Part shown: piece after piece, positions 19,413-59,237 of the stretch
How the letters are laid out: each line of letters begins with the position of its first letter
Numbering within the stretch: the stretch's first letter is position 1
Notes under the pieces: generated by a model
The model's input: only the letters and a program-made list of their open reading frames with translations
Database searches by the model: none
Told to the model about the DNA's origin: nothing
Assembly: GCA_963792965.1 (NCBI GenBank)
Contig: CAWBYW010000016.1
Coordinates: 64,001 to 128,000 of the forward strand
Direction of reading: 5' to 3'
DNA: 64,000 nucleotides
Origin: an uncultured delta proteobacterium
GTDB taxonomy: Bacteria; Desulfobacterota; Zymogenia; Zymogenales; Zymogenaceae
Made by a program: the position numbers and the translations under genes

Positions 19413-19534
19413 GGTCTGTTCTCCTTTATAATACCGTTATGATTAAGGATAGCGCCTCGACCCGACACCTCCGAAGAAGAGACATTGATGGGCGCGGCCG
19501 TTACCCCTCACCCGCGCCCCGCCGTGCGCCGAGC

Positions 19535-19765
19535 CTATTTTCGCACAAATAACAGGATGAGCGAGATGATCGCGCTGATGATCAGCATGCTCACGATGGG
19601 AAAATATAGGGTGAAATTTTCCCGCCTGATGATGATGTCGCCGGGGAGTTTCCCGAGAAAGGGGATCTTCCCCTCGAAGATCAGCAGCGCCCCGATCACG
19701 ACGACCACCAACCCAATGATGATGAGCACCCATCCGAACTGACGTATCTCTTCCGGGCCGGCCAT
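19535..19765 (-). CDS. DUF2905 family small membrane protein
   Basis: two TM helices around LGKLPGDIIIRRENFTLYFPI. Confidence 0.85.
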   Translation of the reverse strand: MAGPEEIRQFGWVLIIIGLVVVVIGALLIFEGKIPFLGKLPGDIIIRRENFTLYFPIVSMLIISAIISLILLFVRK

Positions 19766-20764: not shown

Positions 20765-21079
20765 CCGGTCACCTGCGGGCGTGTACACCTTAACAAAAGT
20801 ATCAGATTTCTTTTCCCCTGTCAAGGGCGCCCGGCTTCAAGCATAAGAATAGGTTTCTTTTTGAAAACGTGTGCTCATCACGTACAGCGACGTGGTATCG
20901 TCCCTTCAATGCGATTGTCGTGCATCCCATGACTGCCAGGTGCGCCCCGATATATCGCGCGCCCGTTACAAAAAAACCTTGATTAGTAGGGAATTCTATG
21001 ATAAAAGTATTTTTGCGTCTTTTTTGTCAGGTCTTTTTATATAATGATCTCATGAGCGATAGAGGGGAGGTGAAGGTCG

Positions 21080-21280
21080 TTGGAGGTCAAGGTTCTCGAT
21101 AACGACATTGAGAAGGCCATCAAGATCCTGAAGAACAAGCTTGCAAAAAGCGGGTTTTTCAAGGAGATGAAAGAGCGCCGATTCTACGAAAAACCGAGTG
21201 TGAAAAAGAAGAGAAAAAGGGCCGAGGCCAAGAAGCGGTCGATCAAGTCGATGCGCCGGAGACGGGACTCGGAATATTGA
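21080..21280 (+). CDS. rpsU: 30S ribosomal protein S21
   Basis: IEKAIKILK, ERRFYEKPS, basic tail; TTG start after GGGGAGGTG. Confidence 0.93.
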   Translation: MEVKVLDNDIEKAIKILKNKLAKSGFFKEMKERRFYEKPSVKKKRKRAEAKKRSIKSMRRRRDSEY

Positions 21281-21441
21281 GCACCGGTCTTCCGGATGTT
21301 CTTGTGACGGATCGGGAAGTGCCAACAGAAGAAGCGGACCGACTCAGCGACGATTAACACGCCGCGGTGTGGACACAATCGATCGGCCCGCCGTGTGAAG
21401 CTTCTTGCTCCGTCCGGGATTGCACCGCGATCGATAACATG

Positions 21442-22084: not shown

Positions 22085-23580
22085 TCAAAATATCGGGGGA
22101 CGTCGGTCAAACCAGGGCGCCGCCTTCTCGAGCTGGGCCGCAAGGCGCAGCAGCACGTCCTCGCGCCCGAACGGCGCGGTGAAGTGCACCCCGCACGGGA
22201 GATTGTCCTCCGTCCAGTGCATCGGCACCGACATCGCCGGAAGCCCCGTGAGATTCGGCAGCTGCGTGAACGGCGTCGCGGCGAGGTTTTCAATGGCGAG
22301 CTTCTCCACGATCCCGGTGGCCTTCAGGAGCTTTCCCGCCCCGAGCCCGTTGACGATCTTCATCAGCACCACTTCCGCGGGCTTAGGCTTCAGCTCCCCG
22401 ATCTTGACCGGCGGGCGCGCCGTCGTCGGGGTCAGGTAGAGGTCGTATTTCTCAAAGAACGTCCCCATCACGCGCGCCGCCCGGTCCCACTCCCTGATAG
22501 CGGCCACAAACTCGCCCGACGAGACGGCCCTGCCCAAAAGCCCTAAGGTCCGGGTGACCAGCTCCACCTCGTGCTTGGCGGCTCGTCTGCCGTAGGTCTC
22601 CTTGATGATCTTAATGTCCGCGGCCATCTCGCCCAGATACATGATGAAATAGCCGATCGCCAGCGCCTCGAAGGCCACCGGCGGGCTCGCCTCCTCGACC
22701 GCGATGGCCGAGGCCGGAAAGGAGCTTTGCCGTCTTTTTGACGGCCGCCACGCACTCCTTGTCCACCCCCTTGCCGACGGGGGATGCGGTGTCAAAGGCG
22801 ATCCTGAGCTTGCCCGGGTCCTTCTTGATCTCCTGGCTGTAGGGCCGCTCCGGCGGCGCAATCACGTAGGGCGCACCGGGGTCGGGGCCCTCAAGCGCAT
22901 CCAGCGCCGCGGCGCTGTCGCGCACCGAGCGACTCAATACGTGCCCCACCACGGCCCCCTGCCAGAGCTCGCCCCAATCCGGGCCCGGTGGGGTTTCGCC
23001 CGCGGGAGGGCTTGAGCCCGAAGAGCGCGCAATTGGACGACGGTATGCGGATCGACCCTCCGCCGTCGCCCCCGGAGGCCATGGGCACGAAGCCCGCGGC
23101 CACCGCCGCCGCCGATCCGCCGCTCGATCCGCCCGGCGTGTGCTCGAGGTTCCAGGGGTTGCGGCACGGCCCGAAGAGGTCCGGCTCCGTATAGGCGACC
23201 AGCCCGAACTCGGGCAGGTTGGTCTTGCCGATGACGACCAGGCCCGCACGTTTGTATCGGGCCACCATCTCGCTGTCGCGCTCGGGGACGAAGTTTCGAT
23301 AGGCCCTGCATCCGCTGGTCAAAGGCACCCCGGCATAGGCATCCAGGAGGTCCTTGAGCAGAAACGGCACCCCGGTAAAAGGGCCGTCGGGGAGCTTGCC
23401 CTTGGCACTCTTTCGGCCGATGTCGTACATGGCGTGGATGACCGCGTTGATCTTCGGGTTTCCCCGCTCGATGCGAGAGATCGCCTCCTCGACCAGCTCG
23501 GCGGCCGAGACTTTCTTCTTCTTCACGAGCCCCGCCAGCCCCAGAGCGTCATATTTCTCGTACTCTTTAAAGCCGCTCAT
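22085..23580 (-). CDS. amidase-signature family amidase (frameshifts near 22990 and 22710)
   Basis: [34 protein letters not shown]; C-terminal [17 protein letters not shown]. Confidence 0.88.
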
Positions 23581-54590: not shown

Positions 54591-55909
54591 CTATTTCAAT
54601 CGTTTGACGATCTCAAAGACTTTTGCCAACGCCTCCCCCTCGTCGAACGTGAGGATCTTCCCCCAGTGATGGACGACCCGCCCCCCACGATCGTGGTCTT
54701 GACATCGAGCCCCCGCGCGGAATAGACGAGGTGGGACTCGTACGAGAAGAGCGGCGCGGCATGGGGACGCGACAGGTCGACGACGATCAGGTCCGCGGCC
54801 ATGCCCGGCGCAAGGCTCCCCACCTCCGTTTCCAGCCCGAGGGCCTCGGCGCCAAGGAAGAGCGAGAGCGAGAGGACGGTTTTGGCGTCCATCTGGGCGG
54901 GGTCCTTCGAGGCAAGCTTATGCCCCTTGGCGCAGAAGTCCATCTCGTAGAAGAGGTCCTGGCGGTTGTTGGAGGCCGGCCCGTCGGTGCCGAGCCCCAC
55001 AGGGATGCCGGCCGCCAACATCGCCGGCACCGGGGCAAGGCCGTTGCCGAGCTTGGCGTTGCTGCCCGGGCAGTGTACCACGGACGCGCCGTACTCGGCC
55101 AGGATATCGATCTCCTCGGGCTCGACGTAGACGGCATGCACCGCGATAAAGGTATCGGAAAGAATACCCTCCCGCGCGAGGAGGCGCACGGGTGTCGCCC
55201 CGTATTTCTGCGTGACCGTCTTCACCTCCGCCTCCGACTCGGCAAGGTGGGTGAAGAGCGGCACTCTGTACTCGTCGCACAGCTCCTTTACCGTGCGGTA
55301 TGTCCGGGGGGAGGCGGTGTAGGGGGCGTGAACGAAGAGGGCCGGGGTCACGAGGCCGCCGCCCTTCTTTTTCGTTTCTTCGAGGAATTGCCTGAGGACC
55401 GATAGGCGCCCGCCGTCGTCCTTCCACTGGGGCTGCGGCCCATCGATGACTCCCTGGGCCGAGATCGCCCTTATCCCCGCGGCGCCGAAGGCCTCGGCGG
55501 CAGAGGAGGCAAAGAAATAGGCGTCGGCGCACGTGGTGATGCCCGAGCGCAGCATCTCGGCGGCCGACACGAGGCTCCCCCAGTAGACCATGTCGCGTCC
55601 CATGAGTTTTTCTTCGGCGGGTATGATCCGATTAAATAGCCAGGTGTCAAACGGGAGGTCATCGGCATAGCCGCGCAGGACCGACATGGCGGCGTGGGTG
55701 TGGCCGTTGATGAGCCCCGGCATGACGAGGTCGCCCCCGGCATCTAAGGTGCGCTCGGCCTCAAATCCGTGGCCGATCTCGAATTCGTCGCCGACCGCGA
55801 CAATCACCCCGTCTTTTATGCAGACGATGCCGCTCGGAAAGCGGCTCCCCCGCTCATCGAAGGTGAGGACCGGACCACCCTTGACGATGAGGTCGACCTT
55901 CTCGGTCAT
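54591..55909 (-). CDS. MTA/SAH deaminase-like amidohydrolase, paralog 2 (frameshift at the C-run near 54685)
   Basis: PGLINGHTHAAM, HAPYT, HLAES, HAV, SNAKLGNG, LGTDGPASNN. Confidence 0.88.
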
Positions 55910-56271
55910 ACGACCACCGACTCGTCATCGGCGCGCCAGGCCGGGTCAACGATGCAATAGAAGACGAGGTCGGAATTGCCCGTGTTCTCGGTCCACTGCA
56001 GCGCCCCGGGGGGGACGTAGACGAGGCTGCCCGCCGAGACCTCGGCCGCCTCATCATTCACGTGCATGATGCCCCGTCCCTCGGTGACGATGAAGACCTC
56101 GGAGGACGATTTCAGCCGGTGGGGCAGGTTCCGGGAGCCCTTCGGCATGCGCGCGACGGCGATCGAGTAATGCGTCGCGACGGGGTCCTTCATGGGCGAC
56201 ATGAGCTCCTTGATCGGCGTCGTGTCGGCGGCCGTGATGCCCGGCGTCTTATGCGGTTCAACGATTTTCAT
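55906..56271 (-). CDS. cupin domain protein
   Basis: PHRLKSSSEVFIVTEGRG, YVPPGALQ, CIVDPAW; ATGA overlap with the downstream gene. Confidence 0.85.
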   Translation of the reverse strand: MKIVEPHKTPGITAADTTPIKELMSPMKDPVATHYSIAVARMPKGSRNLPHRLKSSSEVFIVTEGRGIMHVNDEAAEVSAGSLVYVPPGALQWTENTGNSDLVFYCIVDPAWRADDESVVV

Positions 56272-56296
56272 TTGTTCTACCCGATTAGAGGATTTT

Positions 56297-56377
56297 GGTG
56301 ACACTCTACTTAATTAAGACTCTATAAATTGACGGGGTAGATCTCAATTAAAATTAAGCATGGTGTCCCCCTAATTC
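56297..56377. repeat. inverted-repeat doublet, degenerate copy
   Basis: GGTGACACTCTACTTAATT (56297-56315) ... AATTAAGCATGGTGTCCCCCTAATTC (56352-56377). Confidence 0.75.
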
Positions 56378-56784
56378 TACTTCCTTCTCCCGCACTCAGA
56401 ACAAACACCTTTATGAACACAAATAGTCCCACCACAATCGGGACATGTCCATCTTGATTTTTCGTTTAGTAGAAATTTTGTAATACCCAATTTTTCAATA
56501 TTCCCGAGATTTTCAATCATGCTCATAGTATACTTTGTTCTATATCTTTTGTCCAAATGCTTCAATGTATCGCAGGGAAAATCATTGCATTGAAAACAAA
56601 ACGTTGCCTTTCCATTCTTGAGGACTTCGCAGATTTTGATTTTGCATGTGGTGCGGGTAATCGGCTTGCCAACATCCGAGCCTCTGCATCCACGACATTT
56701 GTTACTTTCTCTCAGATATGCTAAGCAAACACCGCAATTCATCCCACAGGGGGCGATGAGCAAAGCTGCGCCTAATGATGCCAT
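56377..56784 (-). CDS. DUF3795 family Cys-rich protein (low GC)
   Basis: APCGMNCGVC, C.GC, CKIKIC, FCFQCNDFPC, LDKRYR, WTCPDCGGTICVH..CSECG. Confidence 0.88.
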   Translation of the reverse strand: MASLGAALLIAPCGMNCGVCLAYLRESNKCRGCRGSDVGKPITRTTCKIKICEVLKNGKATFCFQCNDFPCDTLKHLDKRYRTKYTMSMIENLGNIEKLGITKFLLNEKSRWTCPDCGGTICVHKGVCSECGRRK

Positions 56785-56811
56785 GCTATTACTATATATT
56801 ATTTCCCAAAA

Positions 56812-56895
56812 GAATTAAGGGGACACAATACTTAATTCACTTTTCTTTGCTTATCCTGAAGGCCCGTTGAATTAAGTATTGTGTCCCCTTAATTC
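56812..56895. repeat. perfect 28-bp inverted-repeat doublet
   Basis: GAATTAAGGGGACACAATACTTAATTCA (56812-56839), 28-nt spacer, exact reverse complement (56868-56895). Confidence 0.95.
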
Positions 56896-56897
56896 GC

Positions 56898-58226
56898 TTA
56901 CCCCACCGACTTCCTCACCCTCCCCGACAGCTCCCGCGCCTTAGCCATGATGTCGGCCGCATCCGCCTTCGTTAGCTTGCCGTCGTGCACCAGCACGTCC
57001 CCGTTGACCAGCACGTCCCGCACGTCGGTGGATTTTGCGGCGTAGACGAGGTGCGAATAGGGGTTGTAGACAGGCGTCAGGTGGGGCTTATTGAAATCGA
57101 CGATGATGAGGTCGGCCTTCTTGCCGACGGCGAGCGTCCCCACCAGCTCACCGAGCCCGAGGGCTCGCGCGCCGTTTTTTGTGGCGGTCTGGAGGACGGT
57201 CTTTGCCTCCATGTGCGTCGGGTCCGCATCGTAGACCTTGTGGAGCTTTGCCAGCGTATCCATCTCCCCGAAGAGGTCAAGGTCGTTGTTGCTGGCGCAT
57301 CCGTCCGTGCCCAGCCCCACGACGATCCCCCGCCCAAGGTACTTGTGCACCGGCGCCCATCCCGAGGCGAGCTTCATGTTGCTCTCGGGGTTGGTGACGA
57401 CGGTAACATTCCTTTCACGCATGATCTCCATCTCGGCATCATCCACCCAGACGGCGTGGAGCGCCGTGAATCTCTCGTTGAGGACGCCCAGGTCGTCCAG
57501 ATACTCAAACGAGCTCTTGCCGTGCTTCTTCTTCACGTCCTCGATGTTTGCACGGGACTCCGCCACGTGGACGATGCAGCGCACCCCAAACCCGTCCGAA
57601 ATCTCCTTTGCCCGCACGAAGAGCTCCGGCGAGCAGGTGTCCAGCGCGTGGGGCTGGATGGAGGGAACGATAAGGGGGTCGCTCTGCCACTTCTTGATGA
57701 AGTTTTCCGTATACTCGAATCCCTTCTCGATGGGCCCGTAGTTCGGGGAGGGAAAGTCATAGAGCACCTCGCCGAGCACCCCCCGCATCCCCATCTCTTT
57801 GGCGGCTCTCGCCGCCGAGTCCTCGAAGAGGTACATGTCACAAAAGGTCGTCACCCCCCCGAGCAGCATCTCCGCGCAGGCGAGCTTCGTCCCCCAGTAG
57901 ACGAAGTCGTCGTCGAGGTTGGCCTTCTCGGCCGGAAAGATATAGTCGCATAGCCACCGCTCCAGCGGCAGGTCGTCGGCGATCCCCCGAAAGAGGCTCA
58001 TGGCCGCATGCGTGTGCCCGTTGACCAACCCCGGCATCACGACGCATCCCGTCGCGTCAATCTCGGTTCTTGCCGCCCAGCGACGGGCGGCATCGCTCCG
58101 TTTCCCCACGAAAGCGATCGCGTCGCCTACGACCACGACCGCGCCGTCTTCAATCGGGACCCCGTCCTCCATCGTCAGGACGATCCCGCCCGAAATAACT
58201 ACGTCCGCGCCGATTCTCTCCGTCAT
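56898..58226 (-). CDS. mtaD: 5'-methylthioadenosine/S-adenosylhomocysteine deaminase family protein
   Basis: NGHTHAAMSLFRG.ADDLPL, FPAE, DMY, PHA, HVAES, PESNMKLASG, GTDGCASNNDLD; ATG after AAGAGGA. Confidence 0.85.
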   Translation of the reverse strand: MTERIGADVVISGGIVLTMEDGVPIEDGAVVVVGDAIAFVGKRSDAARRWAARTEIDATGCVVMPGLVNGHTHAAMSLFRGIADDLPLERWLCDYIFPAEKANLDDDFVYWGTKLACAEMLLGGVTTFCDMYLFEDSAARAAKEMGMRGVLGEVLYDFPSPNYGPIEKGFEYTENFIKKWQSDPLIVPSIQPHALDTCSPELFVRAKEISDGFGVRCIVHVAESRANIEDVKKKHGKSSFEYLDDLGVLNERFTALHAVWVDDAEMEIMRERNVTVVTNPESNMKLASGWAPVHKYLGRGIVVGLGTDGCASNNDLDLFGEMDTLAKLHKVYDADPTHMEAKTVLQTATKNGARALGLGELVGTLAVGKKADLIIVDFNKPHLTPVYNPYSHLVYAAKSTDVRDVLVNGDVLVHDGKLTKADAADIMAKARELSGRVRKSVG

Positions 58227-59087
58227 TCCTCTTTTGTTTCTCCTATCCGCCGGATTACCGCGGCGATCAGTCTGATGAGGTCCGGACCGGTCCTCTTCTC
58301 CCGTGGCGATGATATCGTCGATCAGGATGGGAGCCATGGCGTCGGGGAGGTTAACGTTGGCCACGAGCGAAAAGCCCAACACCCGCATCCTCACGTGCGC
58401 CGCGGTGATCACCTCCATAACCGTCGACATGCCCAGGGCGTCGGCACCGAGGCCGCGAAACATCCTGGTCTCGGCCGCCGTCTCGAGGCTCGGGCCCAAG
58501 ACCCCGATATAGACCCCCCGGTTGACGTGGATGCCCAGCCTGAGCGCCTCCTCTTCGGCGATCTCGATGAGCTCCCGATCATAGGCCTTCGTCATGTCGG
58601 GAAAGCGGGGGCCCAACGTGTCGAGATTGGGGCCGACGAGCGGGTTACGGCCCGTGAAGTTGATCTGGTCGTGGATAACCATGATCTCCCCCGGCCGAAA
58701 GAGCGGATTGAGGCCGCCGGCCGAATTGGTGATGATGAGGGTGTTGATCCCAAGGGCGAAGAGGGCCCGGACGGCAAAGGCGATCTCGGGGGCCGTATAC
58801 CCCTCGTAGAGGTGGAACCGGCCCTCCATGGCCGCCGTCTCCACCCCGGCGATCCTCCCGATATGCAAAATCCCCGCATGACCCTCCGCGGTCGAGACGG
58901 GGAAGTGGGGGATCTCCCCATACGGGATCGAAACCTCCGTCTCCATGACCGCGGAAGTACCGGAAAGTCCCGTGCCGAGGATCACGGCCACGCGCGGACG
59001 GAGGTTTGTCTTGATGAGGATGTGATCGGCCGCCTCGTGGATCTCTTTGATCGCTTTGTCTGCATCGCGGGGGGGCTGGACTGTCAT
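58223..59087 (-). CDS. purine-nucleoside phosphorylase, trimeric family (frameshift near 58295)
   Basis: ILGTGL, IPHFPVST.EGH.G, GRFHLYEG, TNSAGG, GPSLET.AE, GMSTV.E, VAN; corrected end DLIRLIAAVIRRI...stop overlaps the next ATG. Confidence 0.9.
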
Positions 59088-59237
59088 GGTATGACTCCCT
59101 CCACTGAGATAGACCGCTGGACCGGACGGACACAAACGGTCCGTCTGCGGCGCACGGGTGAGTGGCATACGGTCAGCCGGGCCGCATGAGCACACGGCCC
59201 ATCGCGTCCGCGCGGCGCACCGTGCCCGAAAGTATCT

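Follow-up and report, generated by a model that had tools for sequence, protein, structure and literature searches.

A foreign low-GC DUF3795 gene between two repeat doublets at a likely former TIRYT-type transposase site in an uncultured Zymogenaceae genome

We analysed a 64,000-nt stretch (the window; G000:C16:64001-128000, contig CAWBYW010000016.1) of the draft genome of an uncultured member of the Zymogenaceae (assembly GCA_963792965.1, 3.36 Mb, 42 contigs, 88.85% complete; G000), in which a small low-GC gene of the DUF3795 family lies between two inverted-repeat elements. All genes of the region are on the minus strand, in the order TPR gene, mtaD fusion, DUF3795 gene, cupin gene and second amidohydrolase gene. 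Each repeat element, here called a doublet, consists of two inverted arms and a loop, the arm being the terminal inverted repeat (TIR) unit. Pfam supported the DUF3795 (PF12675, E 6e-9), the cupin and a PNP_UDP_1 + Amidohydro_1 fusion for ‘mtaD’. The space between the mtaD and cupin genes is called the junction or slot, and its features are as follows.

54596..55909, minus strand: second amidohydrolase gene, after the cupin gene (Pfam)
55906..56271, minus strand: cupin gene, downstream gene of the slot (Pfam; present in 10 of 10 family genomes)
56290..56377: degenerate repeat doublet; arms 56290-56315 (outer) and 56352-56377 (inner), loop 56316-56351
56377..56784, minus strand: DUF3795 gene, 135 aa, Cys-rich (Pfam PF12675; GC content at third codon positions, GC3; DNA homology)
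56785..56811, minus strand: 27-nt AT-rich leader from the perfect doublet to the DUF3795 start (DNA homology to loci L213 and L214)
56812..56895: perfect repeat doublet (TIR dimer); arms 56812-56839 and 56868-56895, loop 56840-56867 (nhmmer 66 bits)
56898..59195, minus strand: fusion of methylthioadenosine (MTA) phosphorylase and MTA/S-adenosylhomocysteine (SAH) deaminase (MtaD-like amidohydrolase), upstream gene of the slot (Pfam)

The arms of the perfect doublet are complementary at 28 of 28 nt and lie 28 nt apart, and 2 nt separate the doublet from the stop codon of mtaD (56898-56900), on the downstream side of that gene, exactly as a preliminary description of this DNA had it (56812-56895). 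The same description had reported a degenerate copy on the other side with its inner arm at the DUF3795 stop codon; this copy is present at 56290-56377, its inner arm shares 1 nt with the stop codon, and its outer and inner arms agree with the family consensus at 20 of 26 and 24 of 26 positions, respectively. Each perfect arm is palindromic by itself (GAATTAAG...CTTAATTC), as had also been noticed, and one arm alone was computed to form an 8-bp stem with an 11-nt loop (-4.6 kcal/mol, z about -10). The whole perfect doublet as single-stranded DNA reached -27.7 kcal/mol (z -10.4), and the degenerate doublet folded weakly (z -0.8 and -2.5 on the two strands). The 19-nt arm motif occurred four times in the window at up to 3 mismatches (0.27 expected; none of 100 shuffles reached four), and the outer arms of the 606-bp unit at 56290-56895 have their GGGG ends outward. 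No transposase or integrase family was found by Pfam among 54 window open reading frames (ORFs; 48 scanned at E<=1e-8 and 6 at E<=0.01), in agreement with the preliminary description.

The doublets belong to a dispersed family. A profile search returned seven in the G000 assembly, where the scores are circular for the first six copies, from which the profile was built: the window pair on C16 and single doublets at C11:1828-1908, C11:5340-5422, C9:13183-13266, C9:43922-43998 and C4:91722-91805. Their consensus is GAATTAAGG(G/T)GACACCATACTTAATT, followed by about 30 nt and then the reverse complement; arms read GGGGACAC or, in some copies, GGTGACAC, and are perfect in two of the seven. They are clustered in G000 (2 of 21 possible pairs within 5 kb; placement simulation, P = 0.001) and also in G009 (4 pairs among about 20 sites grouped by eye; Poisson, P 0.002), a member of the closest genus (g3: G002, G005, G007, G009), in which several doublet pairs lie 0.6–4.4 kb apart and one locus (L020, G009:C2) carries three tandem doublets. 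When 41 related genomes were scanned for a 19-nt pattern with at most one mismatch (0–1 matches for a reversed-pattern control), the pattern was present in 10, including all four g3 genomes (17–38 arms each); three genomes of other families (G014, G031, G036) had several arms each, and G013 and G021 single matches. The motif search that the preliminary description had called for thus shows that the repeat is not unique to this locus. An exact scan for GGKGACACMATACTTAATT in one genome per species gave at least 135 stretches, 80 of them with flanks, and the metagenome-assembled genomes (MAGs) among the matches listed were labelled Planctomycetota, Omnitrophota, Desulfobacterales, Syntrophales, Alpha- and Gammaproteobacteria, Nitrospirae, Clostridia, Ignavibacteria, Hydrogenedentota, Thermoleophilia and others (more than ten phyla). 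Doublets frequently stand right after stop codons (mtaD, isochorismatase and Y1 genes) and also in short intergenic gaps; orthology of the isochorismatase genes beside doublets in G000 with those in G002 and G005 was rejected (no blastp match). In one case (G000:C11:5399-5422, L001) the arm of the C11 doublet supplies the last seven codons and the stop codon of an RgpF-like gene.

In the closest genus the same repeats bracket genes for Y1_Tnp proteins (PF01797; G002:C57 and G009:C11, Pfam on the enclosed ORFs), whose products of about 215 aa are 66% identical; the G009 Y1 copies share 66–81% identity with the G002 protein, and a tail of about 70 aa is conserved between copies. The relatives’ Y1 proteins (214–218 aa) carry the motifs PNHVHLV, LWQGRF and RYIEMNP (RYIETNP in the second G009 copy) and match the definition of subclass 2.1, with one conservative difference in the Y motif. 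As given in Table 1 of Quentin 2018 (PMC6006769), that subclass has NHVH, W[EQ] and YIELNP or Y[IV]HLNP and a median length of 238 aa, and the same paper identifies it with Group 1 of Bertels and probably also with the proteins that Di Nocera 2013 named TIRYT. The only PDB match of the Y1 proteins was 4ER8, E. coli TnpA-REP (E 3e-5). The second G009 copy (G009:C11:18756-19400, L016/L066) has two flanking doublets, and its match was reported with an in-frame TAG; the L016 ORF at 1157-1801 is open, and the TAG may sit at the very end of the Y1 match. Beyond the family, among the matches listed, a homologue of the G002 Y1 protein lay within 1 kb of the repeat at 11 of the 80 loci with flanks (5 of these 11 covering at least 206 of 216 residues at 47–60% identity), five loci had the Y1 gene between inverted arms, all inverted arm pairs more than 400 nt apart enclosed a Y1 gene, and the three arm pairs without one were 160–375 nt apart. 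In the G000 assembly itself no Y1 gene was found by PF01797, by the G002 protein (E<=1e-10) or by tblastn with three Y1 proteins (best E 0.025), and the doublets of this genome could therefore be served only in trans. The preliminary description had proposed an element like a REPIN, a doublet of repetitive extragenic palindromic (REP) sequences, served in trans by an enzyme of the HUH or REP-associated tyrosine transposase (RAYT) type, and had suggested a look for doublet-flanked Y1/HUH genes; the dispersed doublets and the Y1 genes bracketed by them in G002 and G009, even at the mtaD/cupin junction, bear this out.

Other arrangements of these or similar repeats were also seen. A perfect 25-nt palindrome, GGAATTATGGTGACACCATAATTCC, with the core GGTGACACC in common with the arms, occurs at G000:C11:150238-150262 and 158543-158567 (L005), in each case about 40 nt upstream of an ATG; the gene start there exists in two inverted copies separated by 8 kb, and the palindrome may represent an operator or a minimal pair of arms. 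On a 5.8-kb Desulfotignum MAG contig (L130-L134), five single same-strand arms, each with a common extension past the arm, are spaced 0.7–1.25 kb apart in an array-like layout, unlike the doublets, and the small genes between them include a HicA-like gene, an HTH_37 gene and its Gp49-like partner, and fragments of DUF4143. Outer arm ends carry tandem repeats at L077:1000-1160 (a Planctomycetota MAG), where about 70 nt (the last Y1-gene codons plus the arm) stand three times, and also at L081, L103, L107 and L141, where pieces of about 10 nt of the outer flank are repeated.

For a comparison of the junction across the family, mtaD, the cupin, the second amidohydrolase, the Y1 protein and the doublet profile were placed on the loci of the closest genus and of three other genera (g2, G001; g4, G003; g5, G004, G006 and G008), with the following results.

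G006, G004, G008 (g5) and G003 (g4): mtaD, 15–70 bp, cupin; no doublet
G001 (g2): no mtaD beside the cupin within the locus
G009:C9 (g3): mtaD, doublet, Y1 gene (product 81% identical to that of G002), doublet, cupin
G002:C57 (g3): mtaD, doublet, Y1 gene, doublet, low-GC TPR gene, cupin
G007 (g3): mtaD, one arm, cupin
G005 (g3): mtaD, about 200 AT-rich bp, cupin; decayed arm in the spacer, by eye
G000: mtaD, doublet, DUF3795 gene, doublet, cupin

The junction is syntenic between G000 and g3: mtaD is 79–86% identical across g3 (81% between G002 and G000), and the g3 cupins are 70–83% identical to that of G000 as against about 50% for g4 and g5. The mtaD-side doublet has the arm variant CACAATAC in both G000 and G009, and in G002 on one of its two arms. 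Between this doublet and the Y1 start, G009 and G002 have, in this order, TTGACA, 17 nt and TATATA; in G000, 27 AT-rich nt lie between the doublet and the DUF3795 start. On the cupin side, an extra half-arm in G002 ends in ...ACCAAAAT and resembles the outer arm of the degenerate G000 doublet, which has the same ending. Slot mapping found no Y1 remnant in the G000 slot, and DUF3795 is at this junction in none of the four g3 genomes, all of which have a doublet, an arm or an arm remnant there. As to the empty site envisaged in the preliminary description, the junction is empty in the more distant genera g4 and g5 and has a single arm in G007; no clean empty site or target duplication was seen. 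The low-GC TPR gene at the G002 junction is one of two paralogues in that genome (L014:2036-2794 and L015:1790-2473; 36% identical, with N-terminal hydrophobic stretches), each standing directly after a doublet at two different loci.

The DUF3795 gene is foreign to its surroundings. Its GC3 is 0.40, as against 0.83–0.88 for the cupin, mtaD and second amidohydrolase genes, and the overall GC content (0.400 for 56401-56760 and 0.414 for the ORF) agrees with the approximately 40% counted by hand in the preliminary description. The nearest proteins were 96% (a 913-bp contig), 81% (a Phycisphaerae MAG) and 76% (a Sedimentisphaerales MAG) identical, followed by proteins at 63–72% from many phyla including archaea, whereas the best named relatives of the host mtaD came from Deltaproteobacteria, Syntrophobacteraceae and Desulfobacteraceae MAGs; because the relatives of the two genes belong to such different lineages, the DUF3795 gene has probably crossed phyla. 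At the DNA level the ORF is 85.7% identical to metagenome locus L212 over its length, and homology of 79% to L213 and L214, both low-GC contigs, runs from 20–26 nt upstream of the ATG, just past the mtaD-side doublet, to within 1–5 nt of the other doublet. Since this homology spans doublet to doublet, the foreign piece of about 434 bp fills the inter-doublet space exactly, and the 27-nt leader came in together with the gene. A profile search (E<=1) of 80 metagenome DUF3795 loci (51–82% identity, the closest at 82% and 77% included) found a doublet at none of them; in L271, a third DUF3795 homologue, an arm-like 19-mer (3 mismatches) stands 10 nt past the stop codon. At the closest metagenome locus (L212:2400-3000; 82%) the DUF3795 gene has on both sides a direct repeat of about 60 nt, equal to the 3' end of the upstream gene (by eye), a layout that looks like an insertion with its target duplicated.

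We consider it likely that the doublets are TIRYT-type repeat dimers at a site resident in this clade, from which the enzyme gene is absent in G000 and where a foreign gene stands in its place. The doublets would be back-to-back TIR pairs of a TIRYT-type element (Y1/HUH, RAYT superfamily, Group 1, TnpA-Y1 subclass 2.1), each being in effect a TIRYT element with its inside deleted and the counterpart of a REPIN. The mtaD/cupin junction would be a resident site of the element in the clade made up of this genus and g3, with an occupied state of doublet, Y1 gene with its own promoter, and doublet. In G000 the Y1 gene would have been lost from both the slot and the assembly, with 434 bp of foreign low-GC DNA (the 27-nt leader and the DUF3795 gene) now between the doublets. 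The repeat family, the synteny, the foreign origin of this DNA and its exact fit are shown by the data; we infer that it entered by recombination or break repair at the repeat edges, and our preference, held with some reserve, is that it replaced the Y1 gene; the landing of a gene-plus-doublet piece beside a resident doublet is less likely than replacement, and on balance improbable. The G000 doublets are probably immobile relics without their enzyme, which would still form strong hairpins in operon DNA and in the transcript. That two of the seven retain perfect arms despite the lost enzyme would point to a recent loss, or to palindromes that keep themselves uniform; canonical REPIN repeats are described as decaying once the enzyme is lost (bioRxiv 10.1101/2021.07.10.451892).

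Among known systems the closest is that of Di Nocera 2013 (PMC3733652), where TIRYT genes are described as flanked by terminal inverted repeats, many with GGGGWSAS, and TIRtron repeats as moderately abundant families of singles, dimers and clusters. The present repeats share with these an arm motif, GGGGACAC, that agrees with GGGGWSAS, and a dispersal in moderate numbers as singles, dimers and groups (7 doublets in G000; 17–38 arms in g3); the relatives’ Y1 gene, too, is flanked by inverted repeats, and it encodes NHVH, WQ and YIE(M)NP. The copy number seen here is also of the same order as the approximately 12 occurrences per replicon given for Group 1 flanking 16-mers by Bertels 2017 (PMC5581495). 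However, the relatives’ Y1 genes are flanked by dimers rather than single repeats, no HTH (helix-turn-helix) tail was detected in their products, and the window has no enzyme gene, with a foreign DUF3795 gene between its repeat dimers, so that it holds a Y1-less derivative and not a complete TIRtron. REPIN-RAYT systems (PMC3116915; bioRxiv 10.1101/2021.07.10.451892) are similar, as far as these sources describe them, in having two inverted palindromic units with a spacer that make one long hairpin, in being non-autonomous and reliant on a single-copy Y1 gene itself flanked by repeats, and in sites that persist at one place across genera while the enzyme is lost in some lineages; they differ in copy number (hundreds, as against 7–20 here), in the enzyme subclass and in being described as lineage-specific, whereas the 19-nt core here is identical across many phyla.

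Several observations weigh against this assignment or against the former presence of an enzyme gene in the slot. The best NCBIfam model for the Y1 proteins was that of the REP-associated tyrosine transposase (NF047646), at 70.5 and 64.7 bits against a cut-off of 80, and no C-terminal HTH domain was found in the Y1 tail by Pfam at E<=10 (Y1_Tnp only in three of three proteins), whereas an HTH-like domain at this place (Bac_DnaA_C, HTH_23 or HTH_28) is given for subclass 2.1 (PMC6006769). The descriptions consulted in PMC6006769 and PMC3733652 report no activity of a TIRYT on its own repeats. The association of repeat and enzyme is also imperfect, in that the Y1 homologues of G005 (31 arms) and G007 (17 arms) are all distant (32–37% identity), and G035 has a Y1 protein at 58% identity and no arm-motif match. 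The loops of the ‘orthologous’ mtaD-side doublets could not be aligned by eye between genomes, and a Y1 gene stands at the junction in only two of the four g3 genomes, so that separate insertions at a resident doublet would also fit. Finally, with a draft assembly of 42 contigs (88.85% complete), a repeat-flanked Y1 gene of G000 could be among the unassembled DNA.

Other classes of element were considered and rejected. In the seven genome copies GT[AG]G occurs at no consistent position, on which ground the GTAG-REP reading (Groups 2/3) was rejected, and GTTRRRY is found in two copies only, at different positions; the preliminary description was accurate in noting that neither the GTAG tag nor attC boxes are present as conserved features. 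A canonical REP-associated tyrosine transposase was set aside on the sub-cut-off NF047646 scores and the weak 4ER8 match, and IS200/IS605 because the Y motif is Y---NP and not Y---Q, NF033573 gave 20.3 bits against a cut-off of 55, and the Y1 copies of G009, at only 66–81% identity to the G002 protein, are not an identical multicopy set. With integron cassettes, the analogy drawn in the preliminary description, the locus shares a gene-sized unit bounded by imperfect inverted repeats and a gene content that varies at a fixed site, but the repeats are conserved in sequence across phyla and tied to a Y1 enzyme rather than a tyrosine recombinase; the analogy fails, there being no conserved GTTRRRY core and no integrase family among the 54 window ORFs (the IntI search was not genome-wide). 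Mobile insertion cassettes (MICs; MIC231, PMC6542083) and MITEs (miniature transposable elements with inverted repeats) of DDE insertion sequences likewise have transposase-less ends that enclose nothing or a passenger gene, the doublet being MITE-like and the 606-bp unit MIC-like, and both would be served in trans; the enzyme here, however, is of the Y1/HUH class, presumably acting on single-stranded DNA, and no target duplication was seen. A MIC-like mobile passenger unit was not accepted, as no end-bounded unit was found at two sites and no clean empty site with target duplication. The preliminary description had itself held that its reading would be refuted if the repeats matched the ends of a known insertion sequence or MITE with target duplications: the arms do match a known element, in that they fit the TIRYT motif, although target duplications were absent from the junctions compared.

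The strongest rival, though we regard it as doubtful, is that a non-autonomous element with TIR ends, made up of the DUF3795 gene and the doublet next to it or of the entire 606-bp unit, is excised and inserted by a Y1 enzyme in trans, much as the preliminary description had supposed in speaking of cargo capture. The outer arms of 56290-56895 are oriented like those around Y1 genes elsewhere, the foreign gene fills its space exactly, the arm-like sequence past the stop codon in L271 would suit such a unit, and the clustering of doublets in G000 and G009 is in its favour. More directly, the sole close family relative of the DUF3795 gene, a paralogue in G009:C5 (53% identical), has a doublet directly after it (L033:1884-1965) with the stop codon (TAA) inside the arm, and the distance from a conserved Cys codon to GGGGACAC is 24 nt at both loci. 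This G009 piece (membrane gene, DUF3795 gene, doublet) lies between an HTH gene (the HTH124 slot) and the next gene, where G000 has a gap of about 40 nt, and is absent from G000, G005 and G007. The same slot in G005 and G007 holds a different small Cys-rich ORF, with degenerate flanking arms seen by eye in G007 and weakly in G005; the arm nearest the downstream gene appears to be common to G009, G005 and G007, and the G009 arm upstream of the HTH124 gene matches in position the G000 doublet at C11:1828-1908. Low-GC or variable DNA has doublets at its edges in several places, among them L020, where 4.2 kb of about 0.40 GC include a split AAA_13 ATPase, and L018, with 3.5 kb that G005 lacks.

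Against such a unit stand the lack of a doublet at any of the 80 metagenome DUF3795 loci, the closest included, the failure to find a second copy of any arm-gene-arm unit, a moved copy, a target duplication or a clean empty site, and the Y1 gene held by every cross-phylum arm pair more than 400 nt apart among the matches listed. At 53% identity the G009:C5 and window genes are not recent copies, and since doublets are common after stop codons, separate insertions could have produced the spacing that the two loci have in common; the recurring junction of DUF3795 gene and arm may mark either a travelling unit or independent doublet insertions right after stop codons. Cargo capture as first described is only partly supported: the foreign gene and the matching junction in G009 speak for it, but no moved copy was found. 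The amidase locus L018 was rejected as a two-sided cassette: in G005 the amidase and PD40 genes are adjacent with no doublet, while in G009 a doublet and about 3.5 kb lie between them and the second doublet follows only after PD40, marking an island edge. The region past the C11 doublet was rejected as a clean insertion, as the MarR, glycosyltransferase and RgpF genes are missing in three g3 genomes (a synteny break), and the left flank of the low-GC island in L020 (G009:C2) had only paralogues at 35–46% identity and no orthologous site. Matches in public reads (three runs of one study, all DNA contigs with small word shares and no RNA among them) were 151–338-nt fragments, too short to judge empty sites or circles; none bridged a doublet and no joints were seen.

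That the DUF3795 gene was acquired at the junction first and the doublets inserted later on both sides, with no former transposase slot, is very improbable: doublets do often stand just after stop codons and in short intergenic gaps, but all four g3 genomes have doublets or arm remnants at the junction and none has DUF3795, the mtaD-side arm variant CACAATAC is common to relatives, and the foreign DNA ends exactly at the arms. We give equally little credence to the doublets being RNA hairpins, terminators or protein-binding sites for operon control rather than mobile-element ends, since, notwithstanding the very stable hairpin, placed 2 nt past a stop codon within a row of genes of one direction, and the action of REPs in mRNA stability and termination reported in PMC3733652, Rfam (E<=10, 55800-57400) gave nothing but chance matches below threshold (28.3 bits at best, the gathering score being 54.3), the sole terminator-like site lies inside DUF3795 and not at a doublet, no T-run follows the doublets, the same 19-mer adjoins Y1 genes in many phyla among the matches listed, and the second doublet has decayed. 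The promoter and terminator scan returned two promoter-like sites and that one terminator-like site, no more than in shuffles, and no promoter-like site upstream of DUF3795. A secondary regulatory role beside a mobile-element origin may exist.

A RAYT-type enzyme is usually described as forming, with its repeats, a closed system of two parts, the enzyme gene and short non-coding repeats, and the repeats are expected simply to decay once the enzyme is lost. Here, if the preferred reading of an emptied and refilled transposase site holds, the slot of the enzyme itself is occupied by a gene imported from a remote low-GC lineage and trimmed to the space between the repeats. In sister genomes, moreover, these arms bound different small genes at another locus. 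The repeat-enzyme system is known already; a foreign gene in a TIRYT-type slot, and arms bounding variable small genes, would appear to be new, and a foreign gene between such repeats is unusual. Open-access literature word searches found no description of a RAYT or TIRYT slot holding another gene, which is not proof of absence, and no match for the arm 13-mers, the figures and supplements of PMC3733652, which list repeats, being outside the search. A bolder possibility, to which we attach rather low probability, is that TIRYT arms are portable cut-and-join or recombination sites, with foreign genes swapped into or carried by arm-bounded units and DUF3795-type genes as recurrent passengers; this would make the locus the first cargo-bearing relative of REPINs and a Y1/HUH-served counterpart of mobile insertion cassettes, and the 19-nt core, being identical across many phyla, could then also serve as shared homology for cross-phylum gene exchange. 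If the repeats or the enzyme cause the gene swap, a very widespread repeat family would be a route for gene gain; if they do not, the locus would be a clean natural example of the loss of a domesticated transposase site.

Elsewhere in the window, two further small ORFs (19443-19733 and 21050-21325) have a GC3 of 0.41, where most window ORFs have 0.6–0.85, and gave no match to Pfam (E<=1e-8); they may be more foreign genes or non-coding AT-rich DNA. The match of the amidase at 22094-22949 to its orthologue in G009 is split into two overlapping parts (residues 1-89 and 81-285) that differ in frame, which suggests a frameshift or an assembly error. The mtaD ORF (56898-59195) comprises 765 codons, with a called model of 729 aa, and joins an MTA phosphorylase to an MtaD-type deaminase; its close relatives are mostly deaminases alone of about 442 aa, and the fusion occurs in only a few of the listed proteins.

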